DNA of 64,000 nucleotides from Planctomycetota bacterium (GCA_021810145.1 JAJZJL010000005.1:4667-68666), one strand, 5' to 3'; positions 1 to 17,407 are shown, counted from the stretch's first letter. Notes: generated by a model not told the origin, from the sequence alone. Program-made: numbers and translations.

Positions 1-400
1 AAAGGAAAGCGTTTCGGTCACCTCCATGGCATAGATAAGTCTGTGTCCATGTTCTTTGGGGCTAAGGCCAACCACCCAATCCCCAATCTCCGCTTTCTTT
101 CGAATCGTCGGCTTGCAGGTTGCCAGCGTGCAGTACCCCCAGAACGGATTGGGCGCAAAGCCCGTGTCGTGCGTGACAACATAACTGTAAAGTTTCATAA
201 TGTACTCCAGAACTGCCAACTTCGGTTTATCCAACAGGCACTGAATCCTACATATTGTATAATATGGGCCACCCACCAACTCCGCAACCGACGGAGCGAC
301 GAGTGCCGAGCCATGTCATCAATGGTGGGACGTGGCGAGTCGGATTGGCTTTTGGGTGGGAAGGGGTGGACCGCCCCGGCGCGCACGGGGTAAACTCTCT

Positions 401-726
401 AAGCGGATAACGCGGATACGGGGGGGGCGCGTCAACGGACAACGAGCAACGGACAACGATTCTCGGCGGATGGGACAGGTACTGAATCTACTGATTAATA
501 CTGACCAATACTGACCATTTCTGAATATACTGACGAATACTGAATCTACTGACCAATACTGTTCTCGTGCCGTTGTGGTGAAACCCCTATTCCAAATGCC
601 AAATGCTAAATGCCAAATGTTGAGGCATGGATGCCGAAATCCCCCGGCGAGCCGGGGCAGGCCTGGCGATAGGATCGGCAGATCGGGACTCAATCTGAAT
701 CTGGGTAATCTGCGTAATCGGTGGAT
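401..726. repeat. Intergenic cluster of short tandem repeats (7-, 9- and 9/10-bp units)
   Basis: CAACGGA/CAACGAG x~4 (433-459); TACTGA-core units x9 at 480, 489, 499, 509, 519, 528, 538, 547, 557; CCAAATG-like x4 (592-619); AATCTG(G/C)GT-like x3-4 (692-726); GCGGATAAC x2 (403-418). Confidence 0.85.
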
Positions 727-775: not shown

Positions 776-1759
776 CTAAATTGGCAGAGGCGGGGCGGCT
801 GATTGGTCAAGGTTGCGGCATTCGGTTAAGTAAGTCTTGACGCGTTGCTGGAACTCCGCATCGGTTTGAAAGGGAATATCCGAGGCGAGAGGAATTCTCG
901 CGGTGCTTGCGCGCAGGGAAAAAAGCTGGCCCGGGCCAGGAGGGCCGATGATCAGATCGGTTAATCCCGGCGCGGCGGAATGGCGGTATTCAACGGCCAT
1001 CAAGGGACACCCTGTACCAATTAGTCCGCGCAGGGAGGCAATCCAGATTCGGGCTGAAAGCCACGGAGGATGTCCAAATATCGGGACCCGCACCGTTTCC
1101 GTACGACCATTGGCACCCTCGCGCCCGCAGCTTTGCACCGCCTTCTGCAAACTGTAGATCATGCGCGCCGTTATATCGGGGACCGTGTTTTCCGCGGCCA
1201 GAATTTGAAGCATCTGCGAACCGGTGACCAGTCGATCCGCCTTTACGGCGCGGGGCTGCAATCTGCCGGTCAATTCGTCGAGGCTCTTTTGAGCCGTCTG
1301 CACTGCGGCCCGCACCTCCGCGGCCGATGAGGTTGCAATCACATTGTTCTGAAGCGTCAGAAGCAGCGGCCCGGTGTGTTCTGCAATATCGGGCAGCGAA
1401 TACCCGCGGGCCTGAACGGCGGTAACCAGCGGATAAAGGCTGCGGCCCTTGCCATCGCGGGATGCGGTGATGGACGCGAGAATGTAATAATCGTCCAAGC
1501 TGTAGATCAACAGATGATTAAATTCCGCCAGCCGCTCTGGCTCCGGCAGATGCGCCCAGGAACCGGAGTCAATATTTCCGCCGATGCCTTCGACATAAAT
1601 CATGCGTTTGAATGTCAGCATTTCGGGAAATTGATGCCCGGCATCATCCATGTGGTCATCCCATCCGGGGTGCTTGCCAAAAACACTGACCGCCAGGATC
1701 GGTTCCCGTGCAGGTCCAGATAGAATCCGGGCGGCGAACTTCTGAAAGAATTGACCCAA
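776..1759 (-). CDS. tagF: T6SS-associated TagF/ImpM-like protein
   Basis: FGKHPGWDDH matches the TagF N-terminal FGK.P..GDF motif and SRDGKGRSLYPL matches S.D..GR.FPL. Directly downstream of tssM; AGGAG SD before a TTG start. Confidence 0.75.
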   Translation of the reverse strand: MGQFFQKFAARILSGPAREPILAVSVFGKHPGWDDHMDDAGHQFPEMLTFKRMIYVEGIGGNIDSGSWAHLPEPERLAEFNHLLIYSLDDYYILASITASRDGKGRSLYPLVTAVQARGYSLPDIAEHTGPLLLTLQNNVIATSSAAEVRAAVQTAQKSLDELTGRLQPRAVKADRLVTGSQMLQILAAENTVPDITARMIYSLQKAVQSCGREGANGRTETVRVPIFGHPPWLSARIWIASLRGLIGTGCPLMAVEYRHSAAPGLTDLIIGPPGPGQLFSLRASTARIPLASDIPFQTDAEFQQRVKTYLTECRNLDQSAAPPLPI

Positions 1760-1798
1760 GCGGACACCTTCTCCTGAAAGCCCAAGGGGCGATGGTTG

Positions 1799-4700
1799 TT
1801 ATTTTTTCGCCTTCGGCCACAACGACAGCGGCGGCAACGCACGGGAGAATACCATCTCCAGTGTCATGGTACGCAGTTTCTTAAACTGATCCAGCATGTG
1901 CAGATGCACAAGCCAGGTCTTGCCGTCCCTGGTTGTGCCGTTATACCGAACCAGAAGTTTCAGTGCTGCCCAGGGGCCGGTGAAGGCCAGACTCTGCGAC
2001 GGCTTGGTTCCGGCGACGGCGGGATCGGTCTCATAGAAATTAAGCTTGAGCACCTGTCCTGATTTTGCGGGTATTGTCAGTGTTCCCAGATTATCATCCG
2101 CCAGGGAACGAAAACTTGCGGTTCCCAAGCGCTGACCGGCCTGGTTAATGGTTAAATACGGCCAGATGATCTGGACGGTGTTATCCGACTGATCCTGTTT
2201 GATGGCTCTGGTTATCAGGAGCTTGCAGCGCAGCGGATTCTGGCCGGTAACGCCCAGAATAGCGGCGAGAATCTGGCGAATCGCCGCTACGGTCTGCCGT
2301 GAATAGCCAAAATGCCAGTACGACACATTGCCTTGAAGAATTCGAAGCTGCCGGTTGACCTGCGAGTCCGGGGTGAGAATCTCATTGCTGGAAACAACGG
2401 ACTTCGGCAACGCTTCGAAATGCCTGGATAGCGCACGGATGTCCGCGGGCGACCACTGGTGCTGGAAACGCTGATCCGCGGTTGCGGAAATAAACAAAGG
2501 AAAGAACGGTTTGGCCTGAATGCCGGCGAGAATGGCGTTCGCCTGTTGCTGGCTTTTCTGAGCCAGCGTTCTCAAGCCGGTAAGTGTCAGGGACTTGACA
2601 TATTGTGATGCGAAATTCGGATTTACCGAGTTGCTGAGAATATAACGATGGTAAAGGGTGTCCGGTGTTTCAGCCAGCAGTTGATTGCGGGCGGTATCGG
2701 GATTACCGCTTAATTGCGTCCACCGATTAAGCCGATGGCGGGTGGAGCGAGCAAAGAGCGGCACATTCAATAAACTGATCCCAGTATGGATATTTGCCTG
2801 CGCAGAGGCAACCTCCGGTGTCTGTGCCGTGGAAGTGGGAACTGCGGCCAGAGCCTTCGAAACGCGATTGCCGTAGCTTTGCAGCGCCAGAAACAGTTGA
2901 TCAACCTGAACGCCCTGCAATTGCTGCAGATAGGTTTTCCAACTGTTGTTCGGGACGGCTATGGTCAATCCATCGGTCAGGGCGGAAAGCCAATACTGAA
3001 AATAGGCTCGGCGATACAGATTCCATGCGGCGGCTGAGGACTGATATTGTGCCAGCAGGGTCGTGGCTCCAAGAATATGAACGGTGCTTTGCGATGTGCC
3101 CGTCGCCTGCCGGAGCAAATGTCCAATTTCATACCAGCCGCCCAGCAAAGTTCCGGCTCCCTGCGGGTTAAAACGCGGATCAAACGGTTTGCCTGCTCCA
3201 GAAGTAAATAAGATCATCGGTTTGCCGACGGCCGCGGCCTGCCCGGTGCTGACCTGCTGCGCCACAGCCTGTTCAATGGCTGTGGCATTGGCAAAGGAAT
3301 GGGAAACGCACAGATGAATCATCGCGTTGATTCGATATGCCTCAATCGCCTGAACCGCTTTAACGGCGGCTTGAGTGGCGGCTTGATTGTATGCGGCGGC
3401 GGCATTTGGCTCCGCGGTTTTCAAGGTGCCGGCCGTATGGTTAATAACGGACAAGGTCCGTTGCAAGCGGTGATTAAAGGCAAGTAAAAAAGCTTTGGCA
3501 TCGGTCACGGATGTTATCGATGTGGGATTCGAGATCAGATTGTCAACCGCGGCGTACATGATTTGTCGCAGGCTCACCTGTCGGTGGGCACCGGCCCGGG
3601 CCAGAAATATCTGATCCATGGCGGCAACCTGGGACTGATCGGTCGAACCGAAAGGCGACTTCTCATCGGCGATTTCATGCAGTAATTCAGCACGCGCCGA
3701 AGCCAGCAGAGCCATGCTCTTTTTCAAAACGCCTTTGGGAACGGACGCTTTACCCAGGAGAACCGATGAAATGAAATTCCCTGCCGCGCCGGATTTGGCA
3801 TTCGAGGTGTTGCCGGCGGTAATCCATGCCGTCTGCTGTTTGAGGCGATTGTAAAGTTCCTGACGATGATGCAGCAACTGCTGGGCATCGGCTAAATAAG
3901 CCCCGGCGAAAGTGGCATGGGATCCCAGCGCGGAATAATTGAGCCTTATTTTTTGCGCCGATGCGGATAGCGCTGTCAGCAATCCGCTGACTTTTTGATA
4001 AGCCGCATTTCCCGCCCGCACATTGTTACCGGCCTGATATTCCTTAGCCCAGCGCATGAGAGCGGTTTCCGAATTCTGATAATTCTGCAATGCTGTTTTC
4101 AGAGCCAGCAGACGCTGCAAAGCCTGGTTGCCCGTTCCTACCGCACGGTTCCATCCATTAAGCACACTGGCCATGCCATGGTGTATCGCCGCCGCAAAAT
4201 CCACTGATTGAATCAATTGCAGTGATTTGGGCGGCCATCGGCGGCCGGAATTGTAAAGACTGCCGAGTATGGCATTGGTGGAATCTCCCTGATAGGTTTG
4301 ATACGACTTAAATTCGGTGGCAGGGAGAATATAAGCCAGCAGCGCGTCGAAATGCTTCAGGCTGGCTTTACGGCCGAGTGCCGAATCCGGTCCAATTTGA
4401 TAGCTGGCTTGCGCGATAGCGAGAAATTCCAAAAGGGCGTCGGTGCGTTTATTGAGTTCCGGCAATGTCAGGGATTGATCAGAAAGCGGGGCCACGGCAA
4501 GACGCGCTTCGGCCGCACGGATGACCGGCTCAAGGACCTGTTGATCGTATATTGTCAAAAACGCCCGACGCTGTTGTGCGTTAACGGTGCCGCTAAGGAA
4601 TGAAACGGGTTTGAATATCCAGGGCACGGTCAACGGTTTGCTGACGAGTTCAAAGCCCTGTTGATAGAAATTTGCCAGCGAATGGCCCAGAATTTTATTG

Positions 4701-6250
4701 GTATGTCCCTGATAGACATATTGTGGCACACCGATGGAATTATCCTTCGGCACGATAATCGCCATGAACTGCGGACTTGATGAGGTAAATACTTTGGCGG
4801 CGGCCTGCCAATACTGGCGTGGGGTTCCGACACTGTTCTTCAATTCAAAAAAGGCGTAAAACGTGCTGGCGAGAAGAAGAATAACTGCGGCAAATCCGGC
4901 GGCCAGAACGGCCACCTTGCGGCGCCGTTGCTGCTGCATGGCATTGCCGGCCCGGGTAACCAGACCGCGTTCTTTAAAGACCTTCTGCAAAAACAGATCA
5001 CGGAGGAAGTACGCCCGATCTCGCCGCCACACACCGCTTGCCGGCAAGGCATCGATGGACACACCCAGGGCCTGCGCGAGGTCCGCATCCAGAGCCTTGC
5101 CTTCGGACATGGAACTCGTGAAGTAAATGCCGCGCAGAAAAAGGGGCTTGGCCGACCATTCTCCCGCGACAAAAATCGTTTCCAGATATTGCCGCAGGCG
5201 CGGGGCAATTTTCAGCAGTGTTTCGGGAAAGGCGAAAAGCGCATCAACCTGATCCATGCGATTATGCGATGGATCTTCGGTGTTGACCGGATCGGCCAGC
5301 AGTCGCGCGCGGCGGTGCACAAGCCGGTCGTGAACCTGCCGAAGATGGCTTTCCACCGCATCCATATTAAAAGGTTCATCCAGGGCGGCGGGATTGGACC
5401 ATCCCATAATCTGATGCTGCAATTGCGGATCGGTCAGATCGTCAAAAAACTGACTGAATCCGGTGAGATAATCGGATTTTGTAATCAGCACAAATACCGG
5501 GAATCGCACGCCCAGCGTGCGTTGGATCATGTCCAGTTGCTGGGCGATTTTCCCGGCATTTCGGGCGATGATTTCGCTGGAATCCTTGAGCAGGCTGTCC
5601 GCCGGTATCACCAGCAACATGCCGTTGATGGGGCAATTGGGGCGATGCGTGCGCAGCAGTTTGAGAAATTCCTGCCACTCGCTGGTACTGCCGGGTGCGA
5701 CTTCCTCAAACATCAGCCGCCCGGCGGTATCAAGAATAATGGCATGATTGGTAAACCACCAGTTCATATTGATCGTGCCGCCGGAGCCTTGCAGTTGGTC
5801 CTGCAGTCCGGGAGGAAAGCCGATGGCCGAGTGGCGAATCGCTTCGGTTTTGCCGGATCCCGGTTGACCCACCAGGGCGTACCAGGGCAGAGAGTACAAG
5901 TCTTTGCCGGCGGCGTGAAATTTTTCCACACCCGCGGCAAAAACCCGGCGCAATGAATCAAGGTCCGCCAGCTTTTTAGCTCCGCTGAGCTGTTGTGGTG
6001 CCGCTCCGGCGTTGCCCGCCAGGCTCTGTTCCATGGGACGCGACTTGCGTTTTTGCCACCAGCCCACCAGCAGGCGAAAAATCACAAATGCAACAACCGC
6101 AATGATCACCAGCAACACAAGCAGCAGCAACAACTGCCAATGCCCGCCAATGGCCAACGCACCCGCGCCAACCACACCGGCTGTACCGCCAGCGGTTGCG
6201 GCCAGTTTGCCGTTGGGGGACAGGTTGCCGAGAAAATTAAAAGGATTCAT
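1799..6250 (-). CDS. tssM: T6SS membrane complex protein TssM/IcmF
   Basis: N-terminal TM; LPWYALVGQPGSGKT Walker A; WWFTNHAIILDTAGR; RFPVFVLITKSD; FLRGIYFTS; second TM; C-terminal GPWAALKLL. Confidence 0.93.
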   Translation of the reverse strand: MNPFNFLGNLSPNGKLAATAGGTAGVVGAGALAIGGHWQLLLLLVLLVIIAVVAFVIFRLLVGWWQKRKSRPMEQSLAGNAGAAPQQLSGAKKLADLDSLRRVFAAGVEKFHAAGKDLYSLPWYALVGQPGSGKTEAIRHSAIGFPPGLQDQLQGSGGTINMNWWFTNHAIILDTAGRLMFEEVAPGSTSEWQEFLKLLRTHRPNCPINGMLLVIPADSLLKDSSEIIARNAGKIAQQLDMIQRTLGVRFPVFVLITKSDYLTGFSQFFDDLTDPQLQHQIMGWSNPAALDEPFNMDAVESHLRQVHDRLVHRRARLLADPVNTEDPSHNRMDQVDALFAFPETLLKIAPRLRQYLETIFVAGEWSAKPLFLRGIYFTSSMSEGKALDADLAQALGVSIDALPASGVWRRDRAYFLRDLFLQKVFKERGLVTRAGNAMQQQRRRKVAVLAAGFAAVILLLASTFYAFFELKNSVGTPRQYWQAAAKVFTSSSPQFMAIIVPKDNSIGVPQYVYQGHTNKILGHSLANFYQQGFELVSKPLTVPWIFKPVSFLSGTVNAQQRRAFLTIYDQQVLEPVIRAAEARLAVAPLSDQSLTLPELNKRTDALLEFLAIAQASYQIGPDSALGRKASLKHFDALLAYILPATEFKSYQTYQGDSTNAILGSLYNSGRRWPPKSLQLIQSVDFAAAIHHGMASVLNGWNRAVGTGNQALQRLLALKTALQNYQNSETALMRWAKEYQAGNNVRAGNAAYQKVSGLLTALSASAQKIRLNYSALGSHATFAGAYLADAQQLLHHRQELYNRLKQQTAWITAGNTSNAKSGAAGNFISSVLLGKASVPKGVLKKSMALLASARAELLHEIADEKSPFGSTDQSQVAAMDQIFLARAGAHRQVSLRQIMYAAVDNLISNPTSITSVTDAKAFLLAFNHRLQRTLSVINHTAGTLKTAEPNAAAAYNQAATQAAVKAVQAIEAYRINAMIHLCVSHSFANATAIEQAVAQQVSTGQAAAVGKPMILFTSGAGKPFDPRFNPQGAGTLLGGWYEIGHLLRQATGTSQSTVHILGATTLLAQYQSSAAAWNLYRRAYFQYWLSALTDGLTIAVPNNSWKTYLQQLQGVQVDQLFLALQSYGNRVSKALAAVPTSTAQTPEVASAQANIHTGISLLNVPLFARSTRHRLNRWTQLSGNPDTARNQLLAETPDTLYHRYILSNSVNPNFASQYVKSLTLTGLRTLAQKSQQQANAILAGIQAKPFFPLFISATADQRFQHQWSPADIRALSRHFEALPKSVVSSNEILTPDSQVNRQLRILQGNVSYWHFGYSRQTVAAIRQILAAILGVTGQNPLRCKLLITRAIKQDQSDNTVQIIWPYLTINQAGQRLGTASFRSLADDNLGTLTIPAKSGQVLKLNFYETDPAVAGTKPSQSLAFTGPWAALKLLVRYNGTTRDGKTWLVHLHMLDQFKKLRTMTLEMVFSRALPPLSLWPKAKK

Positions 6251-6312
6251 ATCTTATACCCGCAGCTTTACCTTCAGTTTCAAACGTCCTGTATGCAATG
6301 ACCGGGAGCCGG

Positions 6313-6984
6313 CTATTTGTGCAGGATCATCGTCAGAGCCTGATTCAATTGTGACACACTTCGATGGAACAGATAGAAATTGGCTATCAGAAGCGTGATA
6401 ACGCATACCACCAGCACCACCGCAATTCCAACGAGTTTTACCCCGGGCGGTTCAATCAAATCCGCGGTGTTGACGTGCTCATAACTGTCCGGACAAATTT
6501 TGCGTGAATCGGAGTCTTGCGCGCCTGAATCGATCCGCAACCGAATTTCACGCGATTTTTTCCGCAAAAATTCCGGTTGTCCGGAATACCAGCCGGTAAA
6601 TCCCAGTCCCAGACAGGTATAGAATATCCCCAGGCGTTCCGTGGCGGCCGGGCTGGAATCTTTGAGTGTTTCTTCCAGCAGATCAAAAAACTTTTCATCG
6701 CCGCCCAGTTCGTTGCGGTCAAAAGCCAGCTCTTTCCATTTTTTGGAAATGTTGTATCCGCCCTCTTTGACCATGAAATCAGCGAAGAAAATCAGTGACA
6801 GTTCCATTTTCTCATACTGGCCGGCCAGGCCCGCCGCGGCTGTCGCTTTGGCCTTCATATCCGCCAGTAATCCCTTTATTTCCGCCCGCACGATTTCGGC
6901 ATCCAGCAGACCTCCGCCGTGCGCCCACCGATTAAGCCGACAGATATATTGAAAAAAAGGTTCCGTAAGTTCTGTAAGCGTCAT
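6313..6984 (-). CDS. tssL: T6SS TssL/DotU inner-membrane protein (no OmpA domain)
   Basis: FFADFMV, GGDEKFFDLLE, FYTCLGLGFTG motifs and a single C-terminal TM; lies between tssK and tssM. Confidence 0.9.
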   Translation of the reverse strand: MTLTELTEPFFQYICRLNRWAHGGGLLDAEIVRAEIKGLLADMKAKATAAAGLAGQYEKMELSLIFFADFMVKEGGYNISKKWKELAFDRNELGGDEKFFDLLEETLKDSSPAATERLGIFYTCLGLGFTGWYSGQPEFLRKKSREIRLRIDSGAQDSDSRKICPDSYEHVNTADLIEPPGVKLVGIAVVLVVCVITLLIANFYLFHRSVSQLNQALTMILHK

Positions 6985-7033
6985 GATACGGGTTCCTGCC
7001 AAAAACTCCTGACCAACCGGGGAAATTGTACCA

Positions 7034-8395
7034 TCACCCCGGAACGGTCATAAACAAAGTCAGAGCAAAATCGCTGTTTTCCATACCCAGCCAGCGGATG
7101 GCCATGGACTTTTCTTCTTTAATCCGATCCCACATGCGCTGACTGTCTTGACGGTTTATACGGAAATAATGCTGTCCCGACTGGGCCGGTAACTCCACGG
7201 GCGGATAGCGCTCTTCCTGGAGTTTTAAGCCAAAAATGCGTTTCCCCACCATGGTTGGGGCCGCCACTTGAAATTGATCCTGATTTTCCACGAGTTTGGC
7301 CAGGGCAATGGGGTCTTCCCGTGAACGCACGGCGATAAAATATTCGTTGGGTTGTGTGAATTGTTCCTCTGTAAGCGCGGCGACAAACATATTCTGTTCC
7401 GATTTGAAATCGACTTTCATAAACCGCGCCGTAACCGCGCCGCGCAACAGTCCCCGGATTTTATCCGTCAGATCCTGGAAGCAGACCGCGGGTTTATCAT
7501 GATCGTAAGCGGGGGCGGCCAACTGCTGATCTTTATCGGGGTACATGGAACCGAGTTCGGCCAGCAGCTCGCGCAATTCCAGATACATATCAAAGGGTGT
7601 GAGGTTGTTGACTTTCAACAGGCTGGAAATTCGGGCGCTGGAGCGGCTGATTGTGCGTAACCGCAGGCACTGTTCAAATTGCGCCCCGCGCATGGTATCA
7701 ACACTGAAGCCGCCGCGCGTTACCTGCAGCGCTAATTCGGTCCGGCTGGCTTCCAACTGATTGGCAAATTCGCGGAGCATGTCCCGCAGGACGGGAGAGC
7801 CTTTTACCAGCATGGATGGGGGAATGAAATTGGGATCCTGTCGCACGGCACCAACCTCTTCGCCCACGCCCCGTACCACGCGCAGGACGGGAAGAACTTC
7901 CATATCCGTGGTGTCATCGCCCTCAACCAGAAATCGCGCGTTAATGCGCCGCACGGCAATGGGGCGCGGATTTTGCCCGGTATTTTCGTCAGCTTGCTCT
8001 ATTTCCGTGACCCGGTACATGCTTTTTACCATCCACTGGTCTTTTGCATCACCGGTTACGATGTTGGCTCGTTCCGGACTCCACAGCGGAACCGCCAGAA
8101 ATACAGTCATGGATCCGGTACGTGATTCCAGGGCCTGTTTAATGCTTAACGTCGGAATATCCGCGTTTTCAGGAAAGCGCACCTCCGTACCGCTTGGCAT
8201 AATGGCATGAAGATGATCAAAGCGCACCATCTGATTTTTCAACGACTCCGCGGAAACCTGCGATTCAATCAGGCCGTAGGGATGGCTGAATGCCAGGGAC
8301 CGCACCGCCCCGAGGCGCGACAGAATATTCCGCTGCATGATCTGTAAGTGGTGCTGTTGTAGAAACAAGCCTTCATTGAAGTGAACTGCATCCAT
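7034..8395 (-). CDS. tssK: T6SS baseplate-docking subunit TssK/ImpJ
   Basis: VHFNEGLFLQQHHLQ matches the TssK N-terminus (W.EG.FL.PQHFQ); D..FIPP, PAYDHD and LPAQSGQHYFRI motifs; 453 aa. Confidence 0.92.
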   Translation of the reverse strand: MDAVHFNEGLFLQQHHLQIMQRNILSRLGAVRSLAFSHPYGLIESQVSAESLKNQMVRFDHLHAIMPSGTEVRFPENADIPTLSIKQALESRTGSMTVFLAVPLWSPERANIVTGDAKDQWMVKSMYRVTEIEQADENTGQNPRPIAVRRINARFLVEGDDTTDMEVLPVLRVVRGVGEEVGAVRQDPNFIPPSMLVKGSPVLRDMLREFANQLEASRTELALQVTRGGFSVDTMRGAQFEQCLRLRTISRSSARISSLLKVNNLTPFDMYLELRELLAELGSMYPDKDQQLAAPAYDHDKPAVCFQDLTDKIRGLLRGAVTARFMKVDFKSEQNMFVAALTEEQFTQPNEYFIAVRSREDPIALAKLVENQDQFQVAAPTMVGKRIFGLKLQEERYPPVELPAQSGQHYFRINRQDSQRMWDRIKEEKSMAIRWLGMENSDFALTLFMTVPG

Positions 8396-8440
8396 GATAT
8401 TTCCTGTTTATGTAAGCACGTGCGAATACAGGCCGAAGCT

Positions 8441-9373
8441 TCAGATGACGCTTTCGACAAATTCTCTGACAATCTCCCTGATTTCATGATCAATTGCCGC
8501 TTCATCAAGCTGCTCGGCCGCCAGTTCGGTATATTTTTTCCAGCAGGAAACTTCGATGGCGGCAAACATTTTTTTTGGCGTGGCGCGAACCGCGGCCTCA
8601 ATTTCAGCCGGCGCAAGTCGCGAGGCATATTTATGCGCGAATTGCCGCCCGGTCTGCCCAACGGAAGAAAGCAAAGCGGCATTGATTTTGCGAAGGCGCT
8701 CCAGTTCCTGCGACACCTGACCGCGCGGCACATCCGGGTCATCGGCTAAAAACCGGCTCATCAGACGTTGCAGGGGCGTGGAGCGCCTTAAACTGGAATT
8801 GGGCACAATGGCTTTCCACATGTTCCATGCGATTTGTTCAATGCTCATTGCCAGTTCGGAGAGCATCTGAAGAAGTTCAAGCGTATGTCCCGCATGGGGC
8901 TGCGCGCCGTCGTCAAGCTGCAATCGTGCGGCCAGCTTGGTCAGCGGCTCGGCTGGCCAGGCGGGGCCGGAAGCCGGTGCCAGGCCCGCGTCCGTGAGCC
9001 GGGCGATAAGTGCCTCTTTTTGAGCTTGGGGAAGTTTGGGAGCCAATTCGCATAAACGCTGCACGAGAAACGCGGGATCCTGCAATTCCGCGGCGTCGGT
9101 TGCGGAACCAACGACCGTTTGCGTCTGCCCGGCCGGACCGATCCGCTGCCGGGCCATGACGTTGTCATCCCAGGACGGGAAATGTTCCGCCAGTGTGGCA
9201 AGAAACTCCGGGCGTTGCGTGGGAGCAATATCCGCGAGATTCCGCTTGATTTCATCGGATATATATTCCTGCCGCGTCTGGCTGTTGTCGTCGGCAAGAT
9301 CAACCTGAATAGCGCGCAGGCGGTTGGCCAGTTGTGCGGCCTGCCGCGAAATATCCAATTCCGTTGAGGTCAT
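8441..9373 (-). CDS. Protein with TagH/Fha C-terminal-like domain but no recognisable FHA domain
   Basis: C-terminal ELERLRKINAALL...RLAPAEIEAA...CWKKYTEL resembles the TagH C-terminal domain. The N-terminus looks helical, with no IGR/SR.H/D.S.NGT FHA motifs. First gene of the tssKLM operon. Confidence 0.55.
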   Translation of the reverse strand: MTSTELDISRQAAQLANRLRAIQVDLADDNSQTRQEYISDEIKRNLADIAPTQRPEFLATLAEHFPSWDDNVMARQRIGPAGQTQTVVGSATDAAELQDPAFLVQRLCELAPKLPQAQKEALIARLTDAGLAPASGPAWPAEPLTKLAARLQLDDGAQPHAGHTLELLQMLSELAMSIEQIAWNMWKAIVPNSSLRRSTPLQRLMSRFLADDPDVPRGQVSQELERLRKINAALLSSVGQTGRQFAHKYASRLAPAEIEAAVRATPKKMFAAIEVSCWKKYTELAAEQLDEAAIDHEIREIVREFVESVI

Positions 9374-9628
9374 GGCATCCCCTGCTAACACGCGATTCCA
9401 GGCAATATCGGCTGAAAAAACGATCGGTGCTCGATCACCGCAGCCAACTTTCATGCGTAAAATATAGGCTGCCTGTGGCGGGAATACAAGCGCCGGAGCC
9501 GGCTGAATTTCCGGATGTCAAAGCCGTTTTGCCCCACAATTTCCGCCGGGCTGTGCAATGCTTGCGAAGCGGTTATACTCATACTTAGAATGTGAAAATT
9601 AAAATGGACTCCAGAGGCTTGATGAATA

Positions 9629-11581
9629 TTGACTAACCAGCTCGCTCCATCCATGCCACAGGGGTTTCAAGCCTGTTCGCTGATCGCTCCAGCGGATGCG
9701 GCGGTGCGGCTTTGTCTGGTCGGCCGTGCCAAGCCTGATCCGGTTACGGGGTGGTTTGTGCTGATCCGCGAAACCTTCGAGGCTCGCGTTTTTCTGGGCT
9801 GCCTGACAGATCAGCGGGGGCATGTGCTGCAATGGGTTCAAATTGCAATTCAAAGTCCTGATTTTGCCACCGACGGCCCGGAGGCGCTGCGGCAACACTG
9901 GAACAATCATCTCTTGGATATGCGATGGAAAGCCACGTGCCGGGCCGCCAGCGCCACGGCGGAAGAATCGGTGATTTCCGGATCGTGGGAAATCGATCCT
10001 CCGGTGCCAATGTTTTTTGATATCGCGGCCGGGCAATTACGCGCGTTTGTTGACCCCGATTCCGGGCAAACATGGACCCTTTGCCGGGATGATGCATTGC
10101 TGGCGGCCAATGGGTTGCCAGCTTATTCCACGAGCTTATTTCGTTACCTTCACATTCGATCCGCCGATGGGCAGGATCTGTTTCTGGCGGTGCAGGACGA
10201 TGCACCGCAGAATCAGAACGTGCAAGCTCTGCGCGATGCGGTATCAGCCCACGGATTAATACCATGGAATGCCGGCGGCTATCTGTTGCATGTTCGTCGG
10301 TTCAGCAGTTTTCCCGTGGAACATTTTCTTGACGTTCTCGGTGGCGCGACCTATGAAGGCTTGCCGGTCGGGAAGATGCCGGCTGATTTTGATCGCATCG
10401 GTGAGGTGCTGCGAGAAACGGGTGAAAAGGCGGGTTCCGGCACGGTTTTTCTGGGCCGACATGGAAAGCGCGGACGGATCATTGAAAGCTTGCATCTGAA
10501 GCTTAAGTTTCTGGCGGATGCCGTGCGGCAGACGCAGATTGCGGTCAGACATCTGCAGCGCCCGATATTGAATCTGCGGTGTTCAAGTTTTCAGGTAGAA
10601 ATGGCGGATCCTGCAGTTGCCCTGCCATTCCTTTGGACTGCGCAGGCGCGGTTGATTGATTGCGGTGACGCAACCAAACTTGAATTTGCCGATGCACATG
10701 CGGTGGTGTTCATGCGCGGCAGCAAAACCGCGCCCGGGGTTTATCAGCCGATTGTTGAAGGCCGGGATATGTCCACCGATCAGGCCGTCCTGCGCTTGCG
10801 AGGCGTAACCGCGGAGGCGGACGGTGGTTGCTTTGTTGACGGCACATTAAGCAATCTGCAATCCGTGGTTCCGCGATTGGATGATCTGGTCTGTTTGCGT
10901 GTGGGTGTTGATAATCAACGCATTCTTCTGGCTGGGGCGGTGGAATCCGATTCCGCCCTGGCAAGCGGTGAGTACCGTTTCCGGTCCATGCGGCAACCGG
11001 TAAGTCCGGCAGTCGCCGAGGCGTTGAAGACCGCGGCGGGATCTACTCTTCAGCCGGTGTGGCTGCAATGCGTTGCACGCATGGATACCGCTTATGATCT
11101 ATATTCCATTGCGGTATTGGCGTTACGGGTGCTGGTGGTTCATGCGGAGAATCCATTGCCGGTGGTGGTCGATGAGCTGCACAGCCTGGCCCGGCAGATT
11201 GCCATTGAACATGCATCGGATCGCCCTTTAGGAGCCAGAATTCTTGATGTTATTACCCGTGATTCGCGATGGAATCAATCTCTGGGATCGCACCATGTTT
11301 TTCGTTCCACTGATACAGCCGAACAGAACGGCGACCTGATTCCGTTGCAGCTCTGGGCTGAAATACTGGCGCTGGTTGTTGAGATGATTCCAGCGGCCGG
11401 ACCGGATAGTCTGTGCCGGGCATACGGTACAATCCCGCCCGCCGCGCTGGCTAATGTATTTGATCCGGTAACGGACAAACTGGATCGGCTCTTGATTCAA
11501 ACACGGAGTTTGATTGTAATTGACTGGCAGGTAAACCGGGAGGTTCACGCCGTGATCCGGCGTTTTCAGATGGGGATGTGA
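9629..11581 (+). CDS. Kinase-fold-like protein (probable pseudokinase), T6SS-locus associated
   Basis: 650-aa ORF. PILNLRCSSFQV (HRDLKP.N position), RLIDCGDA (DFG position), PGVYQP, then a long insert, then DTAYDLYSIAVLALRVL (subdomain IX). True start may be ATG 9653. Confidence 0.6.
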   Translation: MTNQLAPSMPQGFQACSLIAPADAAVRLCLVGRAKPDPVTGWFVLIRETFEARVFLGCLTDQRGHVLQWVQIAIQSPDFATDGPEALRQHWNNHLLDMRWKATCRAASATAEESVISGSWEIDPPVPMFFDIAAGQLRAFVDPDSGQTWTLCRDDALLAANGLPAYSTSLFRYLHIRSADGQDLFLAVQDDAPQNQNVQALRDAVSAHGLIPWNAGGYLLHVRRFSSFPVEHFLDVLGGATYEGLPVGKMPADFDRIGEVLRETGEKAGSGTVFLGRHGKRGRIIESLHLKLKFLADAVRQTQIAVRHLQRPILNLRCSSFQVEMADPAVALPFLWTAQARLIDCGDATKLEFADAHAVVFMRGSKTAPGVYQPIVEGRDMSTDQAVLRLRGVTAEADGGCFVDGTLSNLQSVVPRLDDLVCLRVGVDNQRILLAGAVESDSALASGEYRFRSMRQPVSPAVAEALKTAAGSTLQPVWLQCVARMDTAYDLYSIAVLALRVLVVHAENPLPVVVDELHSLARQIAIEHASDRPLGARILDVITRDSRWNQSLGSHHVFRSTDTAEQNGDLIPLQLWAEILALVVEMIPAAGPDSLCRAYGTIPPAALANVFDPVTDKLDRLLIQTRSLIVIDWQVNREVHAVIRRFQMGM

Positions 11582-11624
11582 ACGAGTCTTCCCGGTATAA
11601 ACGGCTTATACAAAAGGACGATCT

Positions 11625-12161
11625 ATGGCAAATATCTTACGAAACAGATTTGCGGCCGGTGTCATGATGATGTTGATGCTGCTGGGGTTAACGGCCTGTT
11701 CAAGCGGCCCCATTGACCGCAACACGCAATTCACCCTTGGCAAGAGCCTGCAGGTGAACAATCAATCCACCAGCACCATTGCCGTTGATCTTGTGGGCGT
11801 CAATGCCACCGATTATAAGCGCTGGTATAACTATTCGATGACCCAGTATTTCTCGGCCGGCGATCTGATGCGGTCCGGTGCCACCAAGGCAACGATAAAC
11901 TTTACCCCCGGATCATCCGCGACGCTTGTATTTTCCAGACATAATCCGATATGGAAACAATGGAAAAAAGATGGGGATACCTATCTGTTTGTACTGGCGC
12001 AGCTTCCCGGAATTCGCCAGGATATGCCCGGACCGGAAGATCCGCGCCGTCTGATTCTGCCATTGAAGAAATCGCGTTGGCCGGGATCTGCCAATCCCAT
12101 AAAAATACTGATCAAAAACAGCGGTGTAGTATGTGAAACGCCGCCAAAATCAAAGAGCTGA
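11625..12161 (+). CDS. tssJ: Lipoprotein, TssJ-like
   Basis: Lipobox LTAC; beta-rich body (IAVDLVGVN, YLFVLAQLP, RRLILPL); size and position fit TssJ; AAGGA SD. Confidence 0.6.
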   Translation: MANILRNRFAAGVMMMLMLLGLTACSSGPIDRNTQFTLGKSLQVNNQSTSTIAVDLVGVNATDYKRWYNYSMTQYFSAGDLMRSGATKATINFTPGSSATLVFSRHNPIWKQWKKDGDTYLFVLAQLPGIRQDMPGPEDPRRLILPLKKSRWPGSANPIKILIKNSGVVCETPPKSKS

Positions 12162-15100
12162 TTGTGTCATCATATTGTCGTCCAGGTATCGGGACGAGTT
12201 ATGGAATTGCCGGGTGCCCATTTTCGGTCAATATCAAACCGATCACATCATAGGCCGGCAGGCCCTGGAGATACTCTACGCGCCGGTAGATGCGGAATCA
12301 CCGGCGAGAGTGGTTCTGGCTTTTAATCAACCCGAAGATATCTGGAACGCCGCGCGCCGGCGCGCAGCGCAATCGTCATTTATTGCGCGTTACGATTTTC
12401 AGAAATTAATGGCCGGGCAGTCAACGTGCTGGGCCCGGGTTTATGAGCTTCAGACCGGTGATAATCACAGTGCGTATTGTGTGCTGGAGCGTCTGGATTG
12501 GCCCGTCAGCCGGCTGATCCGTCTGCGTGTGACTCCCACCGCGGAAGATCTTTATCATCTGGTTACGAGTGTATTGTCCGCATTGCTTGAGACGCAAAAG
12601 CTTGCCTCGCGAACCCATGGTAACCTGCGGGCCGAACATGTTCAGGCCTCCGGCGGTGCACTGGCTATGGCTCGTGTGGTTCTGACCAATCCCGCGAGCA
12701 GTGTATTTAATGCGCCGATGGCGGCTTCGGATGATCTGGCGCAATTGGGCCGGATTGTCTGCGAACTTGTGGCCGGTCGTCGCTGGACACCCACAACTCC
12801 GTTGGATCCGGGAATGGCGGAATTTAAATCTCTGGGATCGCAGGGAAAAGCATGGAGTGATTTTTGCGGTTTTCTGATTAATAAAGACTTGCCGGAGCAA
12901 CAGCGGAATATTGCCGCGGCTCTGGAGCGTACAGCCCGGTTAAAGCCCCGGAAAAGCCGCCGACCTGTTTATATTGGTTTATCCGCAGCGGCGTTGCTGG
13001 TTATCGTGGCGGCGCTGGGCTATGTGCGTCATGTTCGAACCATTGCGGAGATGTCCCGATTTAACGGTGCTTATGCGCCTTACGCCGCTGCCTATACCCG
13101 GTGGTTCAAGGCCTTTACCGCCGACCGGCAGGTCTTGGCCAAAGTCCCCGATTTTGCGCCCATCAATGCTGCGCTTGCACATGGTATTGTTTTAAATCCC
13201 GATGATATTCTCCATGAATTTACCGGACTTTTGTCGAATCAGCAGATTCAAAAGGATCTGGCCAAACATCCCCGCGAGTCGCAGAAGCTGGGGCATGCCA
13301 TTGAATTATTGATGCGCACGGAGCACATTTTCGCAACCCTGTATCCAAAATTGCGGCAGCAGAAAAGCCAGTGGCAAAAGCGCGGATGGGATTTTGCGGC
13401 CCGGAGTCTGGATCAACATGTGCTGGCGGCTATTCCGGAGGATAAATCGCTGGTGCCTTTTCTCAAGCTCTATAAAGCTTCCTGGGCAAAGCACGCAACG
13501 TTGCGGCGCTTTGCGCCCGGTACCGCTGGATTAACTCCCGCTCAGTGGCTGCAGCAGGTTGCCGGAGCACAGGGCGTCGGGCATATCTGGCCGCAACTGC
13601 AAGCTTTGCTGACGGAATTTTCTAAAACTTCCAAACCGCTGATAGCAACTTTTCCCGCTTATGCCGGAAGATACCTTGTTTCCAGTACGGATGCATCAAG
13701 CCTGCACAACCGCGCTGCCGCCCTGCTGGCTGCGGCCCGGCGGGAATCCAAAGCCTTGGCGATGTATGGAACGCAGATACGCTGGGATCTCGTTGCGCAC
13801 CTGCCGCCGCGCAGGCAGGCGCTTCCGCCGGAGAAATATTTTCCCGACCTCGCGGGGTATCGTAAACTTGCCGGGCCGAAAAATGCCTACCTGTTGTCCC
13901 ATGTTCAATTTACGCTTGAAGCCGGAAAGGTTCATCGGCGCATTCTCCACGCGTTGAAGCTTCCTAAGCCGCCTGTGGTTGATTATCAGTCGCAGTTGGA
14001 AAAAATCGTTAACTTGTTTGCCGGGATGGGTAATCATGATCTGTGGATATGGAAAAATCGCATCCATATCGAACATACCGTTATGACCGCTGAACAAAAG
14101 CTTACAACATTGAATCGAGCGGTTACGGCGTTTATTGACTCGCAAATTAATATCAAAAAATGGGTGGCGGAATTGCTTGGGTTCGAGCCGGCGGGGCAAC
14201 ACTATCGGATCAATCCGCGGGTTTTACAGATTTCCCGGAATCCCGCGGTTAATGCCGCCTATCGAAGAAAAATAGCCGCCCTTATTTTCGCACCGGCAAC
14301 GCCGCCCGGTTCCGCCCTGCGGGCCAATCAGGCGAGTTACCATTTGCTCACTTCCGTCCTGCGAAAGAGGCGCTGGCAGGTTCCGGATATCAGTAAAAAT
14401 ATTCAAACCGTACGAACCAATTTGCAAATGCTGCTTGCCCGGGATTTCCCGGTCACGGTGTCGCAGGCTTCAAGTCACTTTGGCAGGCCATGGAATAAAC
14501 TGGCGATTTCCAGCGCATTTATACCTGCCCGTACGGCAATGATTCAAAAGGCTTTTGCGGCATTATCCTGGTCCGAACTCACGCCGGTGGTTTCCCGGAA
14601 GGACGCGGCCGATTGGATGCGGCAGCGGAAAAATTTTCAACACTTTTTGACTGATTTTAACGCCATTGATGATGCATTGAACCAATGTCACCTTCCGATG
14701 GACCGTCTTGCATCGGGGGTGACAATAACGGCATTGTATCAAGCCGTACAGAAGAATCCCTGGTGGAACAACGCGGCGATTCAGTCGGCGTTAAAATCAA
14801 AACTGGCCCTGCTGCAGCAGCTTGCCGCGATTGATTCGGCGTCAGCGGTTGTGCTTCCCGCGGATTACTCGCTGGCGCTATCGGCGGGGGCGCACAAGGC
14901 GCTATTTGTGCGGGCGATCTGGCATCGGCTTGCTTCGATTCCGGTTTCGGCGGCAGATTTTCCACTGATAACGGAGCGGCGGATTCCCGGAGAACTTGAT
15001 GGTTTGCTGCGGGCCGACTCTGCGCTTGCCGCAAGCCGGAAACGGGCGTTGCTTGAAAAATTAGGTGAACAATATCCTCTTCGCTGGCAGCAGCGCATGA

Positions 15101-16551
15101 ATCAGGCTATTGCGCCGGCAACGGTAAGCGCCATGATAGCCGTCTCCCGTGATTATCGTGTGAAGCTGTCGCGATCACCGCAGCTTGATGATCTGCTGCC
15201 CTTAAAGGCTCTTCATGCCCGCGGTGCCTTTAATATTTTATTTCATCAATTTTACGTGCAATCCAAAGGAGTTAAAACGCCGCAGGTGGCGCAGAATCTG
15301 TCGGCCGGAATGGAGCATCTGCTGGCGGAAGCTTTAACCGAACCAGGTATGCAGTCCCTGCGAAGCAATGCGGAGGTGGCGGAATTTATTCATGGTTTGC
15401 AAGGGGTTGTTAAAGCCAATCCGGCGCAGTCGCAACGGCGATCCGGGCCGGCACTTGCGGGTTGGAAAGAAGCCAAGGCTCCGGGGCATGTGAGAATTTT
15501 CACCAGCCCCACCGGCAATCAAACGCTGACATTCAGGCTTATGAACCCCAATGGTCTTAAGCGATTTTACCTGTGTACGACCGACTTGAGTGTTGGCGTA
15601 TTTCTTAATGCGGTGAATTCCAGTGATAATCTGATCCGAAAACCGTCCAATTCCTTCTACAATTTGATTAAGCCAAACAGCAATTATTTTGGCCCGCATA
15701 CCTGGGTCTATCATCAAACGGTCGGGCAGGCCGCGCTGGCCCCGCACTGGTTTACCAATACGAATCAAATTTACAACGCGCCGCGCTATCCGGCGGACCT
15801 GCTGGCAAAAGCGGGGGGGCACCTGAGCAAAAAGGCCGGCGGTCCGCCAAATGTGAATGACCCGGTTCAGTATCTGCCTCCCGGTGCGGCTGTATATGTC
15901 GCGGCATTGTTAGGCTGCCGCCTGCCCACCGTCGGTGAATGGCAATACGTGTTTCAATTCAACGGTCGTAAGAATCTAGCAACCGCCCACCTGGCCGGCA
16001 GGACCCTGGCGGCTTATGTGGCGTATCTGAAACGTGTCAATTCCAGCCGCGATGCCCGGCTGCCGACGCCGCGCTATTGGGATATCTACAATTATGCTGT
16101 GCCGGCGCTGGCGCCTTTTTTGCATCAGTACAGCCATAACAGCAATCCTGTGCTCTGGTTTGAACCGGTCAATTCCGGTGCCGTTAAGAATTCCTTTGCC
16201 CATCTGGCTGGAAATGTTGCGGTGTACGTTTTTGATGGCACACCTGCCTATCGCCAGGCGTTGAAAGGCTGGATCAAAAAGCCGCAGACGCTTAACAGTG
16301 CCGCTATCACCGCATTGATAACACCGGCGGCTCTCAGGAAAATGTACGTGATCGGCGGTTCTGCGCTGGCTCCGCTGGGCACCGTATCGCCCGCTGCGCC
16401 CGAAGCAATCAATTGGCATCTGCGGCGAACGGCTCGAGGCTTTGCGGATGTCGGCATTCGACTGGCGTATGATCCAAGAGTTCTAACCCCGCAAGAGCGT
16501 CTGGCGCTTCTGATGCGAAGCAATTGGTATCTGCCGGCCAAAGGGCCGTAG
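12133..16551 (+). CDS. Membrane protein: N-terminal pseudokinase, TM, long helical periplasmic region, C-terminal FGE-sulfatase (TagR-like) domain
   Basis: THGNLRAEHV and DDLAQLGRIVCELVAG kinase remnants; TM YIGLSAAALLVIVAALGYV; FGE motifs FYLCTTDLS, CRLPTVGEWQY, HLAGNVAVYV, GFADVGIRLA. Exact start uncertain. Confidence 0.75.
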   Translation: MKRRQNQRADCVIILSSRYRDELWNCRVPIFGQYQTDHIIGRQALEILYAPVDAESPARVVLAFNQPEDIWNAARRRAAQSSFIARYDFQKLMAGQSTCWARVYELQTGDNHSAYCVLERLDWPVSRLIRLRVTPTAEDLYHLVTSVLSALLETQKLASRTHGNLRAEHVQASGGALAMARVVLTNPASSVFNAPMAASDDLAQLGRIVCELVAGRRWTPTTPLDPGMAEFKSLGSQGKAWSDFCGFLINKDLPEQQRNIAAALERTARLKPRKSRRPVYIGLSAAALLVIVAALGYVRHVRTIAEMSRFNGAYAPYAAAYTRWFKAFTADRQVLAKVPDFAPINAALAHGIVLNPDDILHEFTGLLSNQQIQKDLAKHPRESQKLGHAIELLMRTEHIFATLYPKLRQQKSQWQKRGWDFAARSLDQHVLAAIPEDKSLVPFLKLYKASWAKHATLRRFAPGTAGLTPAQWLQQVAGAQGVGHIWPQLQALLTEFSKTSKPLIATFPAYAGRYLVSSTDASSLHNRAAALLAAARRESKALAMYGTQIRWDLVAHLPPRRQALPPEKYFPDLAGYRKLAGPKNAYLLSHVQFTLEAGKVHRRILHALKLPKPPVVDYQSQLEKIVNLFAGMGNHDLWIWKNRIHIEHTVMTAEQKLTTLNRAVTAFIDSQINIKKWVAELLGFEPAGQHYRINPRVLQISRNPAVNAAYRRKIAALIFAPATPPGSALRANQASYHLLTSVLRKRRWQVPDISKNIQTVRTNLQMLLARDFPVTVSQASSHFGRPWNKLAISSAFIPARTAMIQKAFAALSWSELTPVVSRKDAADWMRQRKNFQHFLTDFNAIDDALNQCHLPMDRLASGVTITALYQAVQKNPWWNNAAIQSALKSKLALLQQLAAIDSASAVVLPADYSLALSAGAHKALFVRAIWHRLASIPVSAADFPLITERRIPGELDGLLRADSALAASRKRALLEKLGEQYPLRWQQRMNQAIAPATVSAMIAVSRDYRVKLSRSPQLDDLLPLKALHARGAFNILFHQFYVQSKGVKTPQVAQNLSAGMEHLLAEALTEPGMQSLRSNAEVAEFIHGLQGVVKANPAQSQRRSGPALAGWKEAKAPGHVRIFTSPTGNQTLTFRLMNPNGLKRFYLCTTDLSVGVFLNAVNSSDNLIRKPSNSFYNLIKPNSNYFGPHTWVYHQTVGQAALAPHWFTNTNQIYNAPRYPADLLAKAGGHLSKKAGGPPNVNDPVQYLPPGAAVYVAALLGCRLPTVGEWQYVFQFNGRKNLATAHLAGRTLAAYVAYLKRVNSSRDARLPTPRYWDIYNYAVPALAPFLHQYSHNSNPVLWFEPVNSGAVKNSFAHLAGNVAVYVFDGTPAYRQALKGWIKKPQTLNSAAITALITPAALRKMYVIGGSALAPLGTVSPAAPEAINWHLRRTARGFADVGIRLAYDPRVLTPQERLALLMRSNWYLPAKGP

Positions 16552-16899
16552 CATCGGATGGAACCTGCCGGTGATTGAGGCAAAAGATAATGGAAAATCA
16601 GATTTCCACCAGAGAAATCCCCTGCGGAGAGCGTCAATGCCACGGGTGAACGACGGTTATGCTGATGGCTCGATTTAGTGGCGATTGTCCTGCGGCGACA
16701 TTGTCGTGCCGCAGGCTGGCGCGGCTGTGAAAGAAATGGCACAGGACCGGGGCTTAACCGTGCCGCTTTTCCGCGGGTTATATTCCGGGCAATGGTTGCC
16801 TGACAAAAATCACCGGGCGCATTGGAGCATGGAAAATATTTTGACTTGTCTTGCCCGGCGGCTGGCCGAAAACCTCTACGTACGGTTACAATTCACGCC

Positions 16900-17379
16900 A
16901 TGATGCTGGAAAAGAATCATTGTGTTCGGCGTGTTGGCGGTTGGCTGTTCGGCGCTTTACTTTGTGCTTTCGTGCTTCCTCTCGGAGGATGTGTGGAGCG
17001 GTCGGTTACGCTGGTCAGCGACCCGCCGGGAAGTCTGGTATATCTCAATGATGTTGAGCAGGGAACTACGCCGTGCACGGTGCCGTTCAAATGGTACGGG
17101 GATTACAGCATTCGGCTGCGGAAAAAGCAGGACGTCGGAACGGCCCTGAAGCCTAAATATGTTTATTACTATCTGCACACGCATAAAAACATGCCACGGC
17201 CCTGGTTCCAGTGGTACGGTGTGGACCTGTTTGCAAGTATTCTGCCGATAGAATTTAAGGATCATCAGATTTGGGCGTTTATCGTGCCCAAGGTGCCTCA
17301 ATTATCAACACAGGAACTGATAAACAAAGCCAATGCACTTAAAGCCAAACTTCCACCGCCAAAGCCGGCGAGTCCGTAA
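16900..17379 (+). CDS. PEGA-domain lipoprotein
   Basis: LGGC lipobox followed by VERSVTLVSDPPGSLVYLNDVEQGTTP, a PEGA signature common in planctomycetes. Confidence 0.8.
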   Translation: MMLEKNHCVRRVGGWLFGALLCAFVLPLGGCVERSVTLVSDPPGSLVYLNDVEQGTTPCTVPFKWYGDYSIRLRKKQDVGTALKPKYVYYYLHTHKNMPRPWFQWYGVDLFASILPIEFKDHQIWAFIVPKVPQLSTQELINKANALKAKLPPPKPASP

Positions 17380-17407
17380 ATGTTAACGTGCCAATGGGAG
17401 GACGATC

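Follow-up and report, generated by a model that had tools for sequence, protein, structure and literature searches.

The window analysed here is a 64-kb stretch of DNA (G000:C124:4667-68666) from a Phycisphaerales metagenome-assembled genome (MAG; G000, 4.47 Mb in 200 contigs, 94% complete, with a contamination estimate of 1.85%). Its positions 776-16551 carry type VI secretion system (T6SS) genes for the membrane complex and TssK, together with candidate control proteins. Judged from its genes, this locus very probably represents one half of a complete T6SS of type i (T6SSi) that is present in a single copy, namely the half for the membrane complex, TssK and post-translational control. An initial annotation had offered two readings of it, namely half of a split T6SS or a TssJLM-TssK channel used without a contractile tail. 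The first of these holds, as the missing genes were found together on another contig of the same genome (C134), each of them once, and all 15 TssK-positive genomes of the order also have TssC. Since the tail cluster on C134 is complete and complementary to the locus, what we have is an ordinary split T6SS and not the unusual system that had been envisaged.

The two halves of the T6SS

A search of G000 for the sheath family returned one TssC, located on contig C134 (E 5e-133). A scan of all large open reading frames (ORFs) on this 17.8-kb contig showed an array on one strand, in the order TssA, TssB, TssC, Hcp, ImpE/TagJ, TssE, TssF, TssG, ClpV, VgrG and DUF2169, whose T6SS family matches range from E 6e-19 to 3e-222. 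The DUF2169 gene is cut by the contig end, and TssC is without the LLDEII N-terminal motif. TagJ has been described as the mark of one T6SS class (PMC4239648), and the order of the C134 operon, TagJ included, fits the TagJ-bearing class as outlined there.

The two loci complement each other gene by gene. TssK, TssC, VgrG and IcmF-N are each single-copy in G000, and tblastn with the 20 module proteins found each of them once in the genome, with the exception of ClpB-like paralogues of ClpV. Thus TssJ, TssK, TssL and TssM from the window and TssA-I from C134 add up to 13 of 13 core components without redundancy. All 20 T6SS genes of the two loci are intact ORFs with no internal stops. The G+C content of C134 (0.536, as against 0.546 +/- 0.011 for the genome) and its tetranucleotide usage (r 0.96 with the genome, rank 23 of 149 from the bottom) are typical of the genome, which indicates that the contig comes from the same organism. 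The core genes do not cluster at a single locus in G000, but form two loci on different contigs: tail genes are absent from the window, as initially annotated, and tblastn with all of the C134 tail proteins gave no match on contig C124.

Within 776-16551, an ORF map and family scans place TagF, TssM, TssL, TssK and a putative FHA-less TagH/Fha-like protein on the minus strand, and a 650-residue protein, the TssJ lipoprotein and a 1472-residue kinase-like membrane protein, in that order, on the plus strand. The features are as follows (basis of assignment in brackets).

776-1759, minus strand: tagF-like, 327 amino acids, last gene of the minus-strand operon (fold match and invariant residues)
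1799-6250, minus strand: tssM, 1483 amino acids (PF14331, TIGR03348)
6313-7002, minus strand: tssL/dotU, short form, 229 amino acids (PF09850)
7034-8395, minus strand: tssK, baseplate subunit, 453 amino acids (PF05936, TIGR03353)
8441-9373, minus strand: putative FHA-less TagH/Fha-like protein, 310 amino acids from M28; the longest ORF (337 amino acids) runs to 9454 (position, and PF20232 in relatives)
9374-9628, no strand: divergent intergenic region between both operons (sigma-70 scan, junction in G030)
9629-11581, plus strand: 650-residue cytoplasmic protein of an unnamed T6SS-linked family (co-occurrence, tssJ as neighbour)
11625-12161, plus strand: tssJ, outer-membrane lipoprotein, 178 amino acids, lipobox L-T-A-C25 (predicted fold)
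12133-16551, plus strand: PpkA-like membrane protein, 1472 amino acids (kinase and formylglycine-generating enzyme (FGE) profile matches)

This gene content and these coordinates were proposed in the initial annotation and were borne out by the ORF map, the family scans and the structural models.

Three of the proteins are recognised directly by their families. TssK matches PF05936 (E 1.4e-73) and, above the cut-off, TIGR03353 (E 2.8e-73). TssL/DotU matches PF09850 (E 1.9e-16) and has a single hydrophobic segment at about residues 181-216 of 229; the 13 residues beyond this span leave no room for a periplasmic or peptidoglycan-binding domain. TssM, the sole IcmF-N match in G000, is recognised by PF14331 (E 3e-57), and its TIGR03348 match is confined to residues 32-489. 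By hydropathy it has two hydrophobic spans at the N-terminus and a third at about 443-471; a Walker-A NTPase domain (GQPGSGKT) precedes the third span, and about 1010 periplasmic residues come after it. Nothing ties the length of this last part to the wide planctomycete periplasm, to which an adaptation had been proposed initially. Both the long TssM and the TssL without a peptidoglycan-binding domain had been noted before and stand. When aligned with four annotated TssM proteins, the window TssM gave an hhalign probability of 100% over residues 68-434, and its full-length orthologues total 1448-1491 residues. The periplasmic part has no Pfam match (the IcmF-related and IcmF_C domains were looked for), is covered by none of 447 plasmid TssM records in BLAST searches, and was not recognised by hhalign of the whole protein; phmmer, run with TssM on the PDB, returned no relevant match.

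The remaining proteins, of 327, 337, 650, 178 and 1472 residues, have no Pfam or NCBIfam match at E values up to 10. For TssJ in particular, PF12790 gave no match at E <= 10 (the best match in the whole genome, at E 0.64, is another gene elsewhere), and the TssJ-like alignment used as a profile against the PDB gave none either. Its identity is supported by its predicted fold. An AlphaFold2 model built from 20 homologues has a predicted local distance difference test score (pLDDT) of 88, and the top 10 Foldseek matches in the PDB (E 2.5e-5 to 2.9e-4, probability 1.00) all come from TssJ/T6SS membrane-core entries, among them 3rx9, 4a1r, 3zhn, 6ixh and 4y7o, followed by IglE. The lipobox cysteine C25 is invariant in 20 of 20 homologues, so that both of the features sought in TssJ, a lipobox cysteine and a transthyretin-like beta-sandwich fold, are present.

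Arrangement in relatives and alternative explanations

A TssK scan of species genomes yielded ten Phycisphaerales/Planctomycetota MAG loci, and tblastn delineated a conserved eight-gene module comprising the genes for the 650-residue protein, the lipoprotein, the 1472-residue and 337-residue proteins, tssK, tssL, tssM and the tagF-like gene. Its gene content is kept across the Phycisphaerales loci at 30-90% identity, which is far from what chance would give. All eight genes lie on one strand in the distant genomes; in the window, the block from the 337-residue gene to tagF is inverted relative to the other three.

Across 36 genomes of the order, TssK was present in 15 and a TssC orthologue (at least 72% identity) in 17, including all 15 that are TssK-positive. 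The 650-residue family occurred in 17 of the 36, exactly those with the TssC orthologue. Within the window's own genus TssK was found in two of six genomes, and TssC orthologues of 98% identity in three other genomes. TssK was not found in G030, where the adjoining gene is cut by the contig end. G004 has a TssC-like paralogue only (33% identity). Such a second, distant TssC-like gene (32-33% identity, open frames of 687-864 residues) was seen in genera g3 and g6, at G003:C98, G004:C57, G005:C27, G006:C596, G009:C121 and G010:C178; it may belong to another contractile system, and G004 is without the main T6SS.

The two halves can be close neighbours. In G001, a closed chromosome (CP060234.1), about 16.5 kb of one strand lies between the end of the membrane module (3,229,803) and the start of tssA (3,246,328), with a tagF-fusion gene, a TpsB-like gene and a gene of 3381 codons between the halves; the tail then runs tssA-B-C-hcp-tagJ-E-F-G-clpV, and the T6SS genes all fall within about 45 kb. 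TssK and TssC are 24-29 kb apart on the same contig in G003, G009 and G010. Elsewhere the genes behave as three modules, which we call A (the 650-residue gene, tssJ and the 1472-residue gene), B (Fha-like, tssK, tssL, tssM and tagF) and C (the tail cluster).

G019: C then A (173-kb contig); B by itself (90-kb contig)
G029 (L024, G029:C198) and G031 (L019, G031/G037:C268), window's genus: C then A
G030 (L025, G030:C45), window's genus, independent assembly: divergent A/B junction and right flank as in the window

As the junction in G030 is identical in arrangement, the window junction is not chimeric, and the different arrangements of the modules within one genus point to recent rearrangement.

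How far apart the halves lie in G000 can be gauged from the contig ends. The first 290 nucleotides of C134 overlap the end of C65 (29.3 kb) at 99% identity, and its last 154 nucleotides overlap, in reverse, the end of C195 (48.7 kb) at 97% identity; neither C65 nor C195 carries membrane-complex genes. C195 has a ShlB/TpsB-like gene and, after it, the beginning of a repetitive giant gene; the C-terminal 877 codons of the giant gene are found at the start of C134. Should these joins be correct, some 95 kb around the tail cluster would be free of membrane-complex genes, and the halves would be at least about 34 kb apart; because the overlaps are imperfect, we take this separation as probable only. 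The first 123 nucleotides of C124 are a dispersed repeat that breaks the assembly: copies with 97-100% identity lie at the ends of C119, C66, C55 and C5 or close to them.

A ShlB/TpsB-like gene and a repetitive giant gene (3381 residues in G001) stand directly upstream of tssA in three genomes (G000:C195:40863-48662 joined to L003, on C134, 15150-17787; L016 4416-17228; L021, G019:C41 64291-74811). In G019 the giant gene is separated from tssA by a vgrG. Two-partner-secretion pairs of this kind, TpsB plus giant gene, number three in G000, on C181, C195 and C10.

What else might the window locus represent? A TssJLM-TssK envelope channel working alone, with no contractile tail, would agree with the lack of tail genes in the 64-kb window and on C124, and with G019, where the tssK-L-M block stands alone: of its 90-kb contig, 40 kb were examined and showed no tail genes. 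However, G000 does have a full single-copy tail and baseplate cluster, all 15 TssK-positive genomes of the order have a TssC orthologue, the halves are close together in G001, G003, G009 and G010, and to our knowledge TssK has no role other than baseplate docking. We give such a channel next to no credence; striking as a tail-less T6SS membrane complex would have been, G000 encodes one complete T6SS in two loci instead. One might also suspect that the split is an assembly artefact and that the halves are contiguous in the real chromosome, as in G001, given that C134 is short and breaks inside the repetitive giant gene, and that only the TpsB gene and the 3381-residue gene separate the tagF-fusion gene from tssA in G001. 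We consider this very unlikely, as the stretch from tagF to the contig end in G000 contains a repeat spacer, Nmad2/Nmad3 and two more genes, with no TpsB or giant gene, and the overlaps put C134 between C65 and C195 and not beside the membrane-complex genes. Moreover, other arrangements occur in the same genus (C then A in G029, the window's divergent junction in G030), and the modules of G019 lie on long, separate contigs.

A further concern is that the T6SS is decaying or non-functional, the two loci being what is left of it, or that C134 belongs to another organism and contaminates the bin. G000 is a MAG with some estimated contamination, the system is patchy within the genus (TssK in two of six genomes), and PAAR was not found. 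Against this, the 20 genes are intact, the composition of C134 is that of the genome, TssC at 98% identity recurs in three other genomes of the genus, and the window's 650-residue gene tracks TssC in 17 of 17 genomes. Decay or contamination seems to us a very remote prospect, and one half of a complete, split T6SSi remains our reading of the locus.

Candidate control proteins and flanking genes

The TagF-like protein was recognised by its predicted fold. An AlphaFold2 model from 28 sequences (pLDDT 90) has TagF as its best PDB matches: 9t0n of Acinetobacter baylyi (E 2.3e-10), and 6iz8 and 2qnu of P. aeruginosa. G28-K29, D35 and S100-x-D102-x3-R106 do not vary among the 28 members, and they agree in kind and spacing with residues of P. 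aeruginosa TagF (GK, D and SDR) that are reported as required for Fha binding and repression (Lin et al., PMC5995506). According to the same report, TagF binds Fha directly and independently of phosphorylation. Profile searches had missed the relationship: the window protein has no match to PF09867 (TagF, DUF2094), three of the 28 members match it at E 0.011-0.1 with none above the cut-off, and the alignment used as a profile against the PDB gave no match. The family comprises 159 clusters at E <= 1e-3, and among the 120 of them inspected none is named or carries a Pfam domain.

In three relatives the TagF domain forms the N-terminus of a protein of 1529-1562 residues (L009 16458-21146, L010 11101-15708, L011 16624-21213), the C-terminal part of which resembles the periplasmic FGE-like end of the 1472-residue protein. 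This fusion differs from the known TagF-PppA fusion; the window TagF is unfused.

The 337-residue ORF, which probably starts at M28 (the corresponding Atlas entry begins at residue 28), lies upstream of tssK, at the position that tagH occupies in the annotated Caballeronia plasmid cluster tagH-tssK-tssL-tssM-tagF. The window protein itself has no match to PF20232 (T6SS_FHA_C), and 14 of the 24 members of its family do at E <= 0.1 (best 3.9e-5), over about 50 residues of the 180 profile positions; 10% of the members of one Atlas cluster carry PF20232. An FHA domain was found neither in any of the 24 members nor in the window protein. With moderate confidence, the sequence comparisons suggest an FHA-less TagH/Fha-like protein. 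The initial tagF-like, tssJ-like and tagH-like calls are thus backed by predicted folds for TagF and TssJ, and by PF20232 in relatives for the third.

Kinase-like genes had been annotated on either side of tssJ, and the evidence for the two is unequal: for the 1472-residue protein there is a weak positive signal, and for the 650-residue protein a language-model lead only. The former has a degenerate Hanks-kinase-like N-terminal domain, one transmembrane segment (about 277-301), a long periplasmic part and an FGE-sulfatase-like C-terminal domain, and its true start may, from the alignment of orthologues, be about 27 codons later. A profile of the N-terminal domain from five orthologues matched PknA in the PDB (E 1.1e-5), and a C-terminal profile matched formylglycine-generating enzymes (E 4e-5). 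The kinase-like domain has H-G-N in place of H-R-D and lacks the beta3 lysine and the DFG motif, and the catalytic positions vary among the five orthologues. The gene adjoins tssJ in every locus where both were seen. In short, of the features expected of PpkA, a single transmembrane segment and a periplasmic domain within a T6SS cluster were present, and the catalytic lysine, the HRD aspartate and DFG were not; the protein resembles PpkA by position and architecture, and looks catalytically dead.

The 650-residue protein has no match in Pfam, NCBIfam or PDB profile searches. Its family comprises 987 representative clusters (E <= 1e-3, clustered at 50% identity), and its gene always adjoins tssJ in the loci compared. 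None of 70 relatives has any informative Pfam family, a Pfam kinase included. The sole kinase hint came from a language-model search of Atlas features (score 0.92). An hhalign comparison of the family with the kinase-like domain of the 1472-residue protein gave a probability of 0.7%, so kinship between the two is unsupported, and a likeness of its 'RPxLNL...PGxA' to a kinase catalytic loop and DFG, noticed by eye, is a lead only. The protein is probably a further, lineage-specific accessory.

The intergenic region between the two operons contains a sigma-70-like site at 9562-9591 on the plus strand, no better than expected (one found, against 0.4 in shuffled sequences). The divergent junction itself is present in the independent same-genus assembly G030, on contig C45.

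On its left the locus is bounded by a repeat-rich spacer (433-720) that separates the end of tagF from its neighbour; it had been noted initially and is real. It consists of short tandem repeats (CAACGGACAACGA, twice; TACTGA-based units of 10/19 nucleotides at 480-561; CCAAATG, four times). The unit TACTGACCAATACTG occurs in 166 copies at up to two mismatches on 49 contigs of G000 and is thus a member of a dispersed repeat family; a 124-residue ORF overlying the spacer (319-693, minus strand) is probably spurious. C124 extends for another 4.7 kb to the left of the window, where Nmad2, Nmad3 and two unassigned genes were identified and T6SS genes are lacking. The two Nmad genes, which are nucleotide-modification-associated (Nmad3, PF18754, E 1e-80; Nmad2, PF18753, E 1e-56), adjoin the T6SS locus at C124 3333-4945, reaching into the window at 1-279 (minus strand). 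After the 1472-residue gene, positions 16822-19177 (plus strand) encode a PEGA-domain protein of 185 residues and then a secreted-looking protein of 589 residues with a 31%-identical paralogue on contig C104. Both genes are kept at the same place in G030, and not in the more distant loci.

Proposed mechanism and comparison with known systems

The identities of the genes, their single-copy complementarity across the two loci, their co-occurrence and their synteny are directly established. From these we infer how the system would assemble, that TagF would interact with the Fha-like protein, and that control would be independent of phosphorylation. By homology, the TssJ lipoprotein, TssM and the short-form TssL would build the trans-envelope channel, and TssK would dock the baseplate of TssEFG and VgrG, the genes for which are on C134. 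On this baseplate the tube (Hcp) and the sheath (TssBC) would polymerise, primed by TssA, and ClpV with TagJ would recycle the sheath. TagF and the FHA-less TagH/Fha-like protein probably form a repressor/activator pair that gates assembly, and the 1472-residue PpkA-like protein is probably a signal-sensing scaffold, and not a kinase, relaying a periplasmic signal by binding.

Several points weigh against this interpretation. The system is known from its genes, in a genome of 200 contigs where the C134 joins fall short of 100% identity. PAAR (PF05488) had no match at E <= 0.001 in the 94%-complete G000; PAAR is accessory to the 13 core genes, and this result does not prove its absence. G029, also 94% complete, has TssC and the 650-residue gene, and TssK was not found there with the window query. 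The TagH-like assignment depends on a motif of about 50 residues, for which one of 24 members exceeds the Pfam cut-off (24.0 versus 23.7 bits). Finally, when the periplasmic parts of TssM are aligned by themselves, hhalign gives a weak match (probability 26%, E 7e-4) that is co-linear to the end and pairs FTGPWAALKLL of the window TssM with the canonical C-terminal SGPWAL (GPWAL) motif.

A more speculative proposal, which we advance tentatively and consider somewhat improbable as a whole, is that the Phycisphaerales, and by Atlas leads perhaps related Verrucomicrobiota/Lentisphaerota, might possess a phosphorylation-free T6SS checkpoint derived from the threonine-phosphorylation pathway. It would consist of a dead PpkA-like pseudokinase with an FGE-like sensor, an FHA-less Fha-like protein and TagF, all of them acting purely by binding. 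The 650-residue family would be an unrecognised accessory, possibly a second pseudokinase, and the extended periplasmic domain of TssM would be part of the same adaptation.

T6SS have already been reported from freshwater Planctomycetacia (PMC6461901). At the level of search results, we met no description in the literature of this module from Phycisphaerales, nor of any T6SS gate that involves a pseudokinase. The present locus shows that detection by single-locus rules and Pfam under-calls the systems of Planctomycetota: Pfam is blind here to TssJ, TagF and the TagH-like protein, and the modules are scattered even within a genus. The 650-residue family, the PpkA-like pseudokinase with its FGE-like domain and the FHA-less Fha-like protein make up a candidate accessory set for the gating of non-proteobacterial T6SS.

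The likeness to proteobacterial T6SSi clusters is considerable. The order TagH-like, TssK, TssL, TssM, TagF is that of annotated Caballeronia and Sagittula plasmid clusters, and the order of the tail operon, TagJ/ImpE included, is likewise shared with C134. The P. aeruginosa H1-T6SS presumably has the same two-operon gene order, whereas in G000 the two operons are unlinked, in contrast to H1-type clusters. The proteobacterial clusters continue after tagF with a PP2C phosphatase and a kinase; no PP2C phosphatase is present at the window locus. Here tssJ belongs to a separate three-gene module, the TagH-like protein is without an FHA domain, there is the extra 650-residue protein, TssM is about 300 residues longer, and Pfam does not detect TssJ, TagF or the TagH-like protein.

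Much the same mixture of likeness and difference emerges for the PpkA-PppA-Fha threonine-phosphorylation pathway. By position and fold, the Phycisphaerales locus has counterparts of its members: a membrane protein that is kinase-like and has a periplasmic domain, a protein with a putative Fha-family C-terminal motif, and TagF, the last of which keeps the GK and SDR residues described for P. aeruginosa TagF (PMC5995506). On the other hand, the FHA domain and the phosphatase appear to be absent, as do the kinase catalytic residues: unlike PpkA, the PpkA-like protein lacks the catalytic aspartate, lysine and DFG, and it carries an FGE-like periplasmic domain. Since the phospho-signalling parts are apparently missing, the pathway, if it works here, would do so by binding alone.

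Core genes of one T6SS machine can be spread over several loci, as in Vibrio cholerae, with its main cluster and auxiliary hcp/vgrG clusters. In contrast to that multi-locus system, the break in G000 falls between the membrane-complex/TssK operon and the whole of the tail/baseplate operon, and the three modules are shuffled even within one genus.

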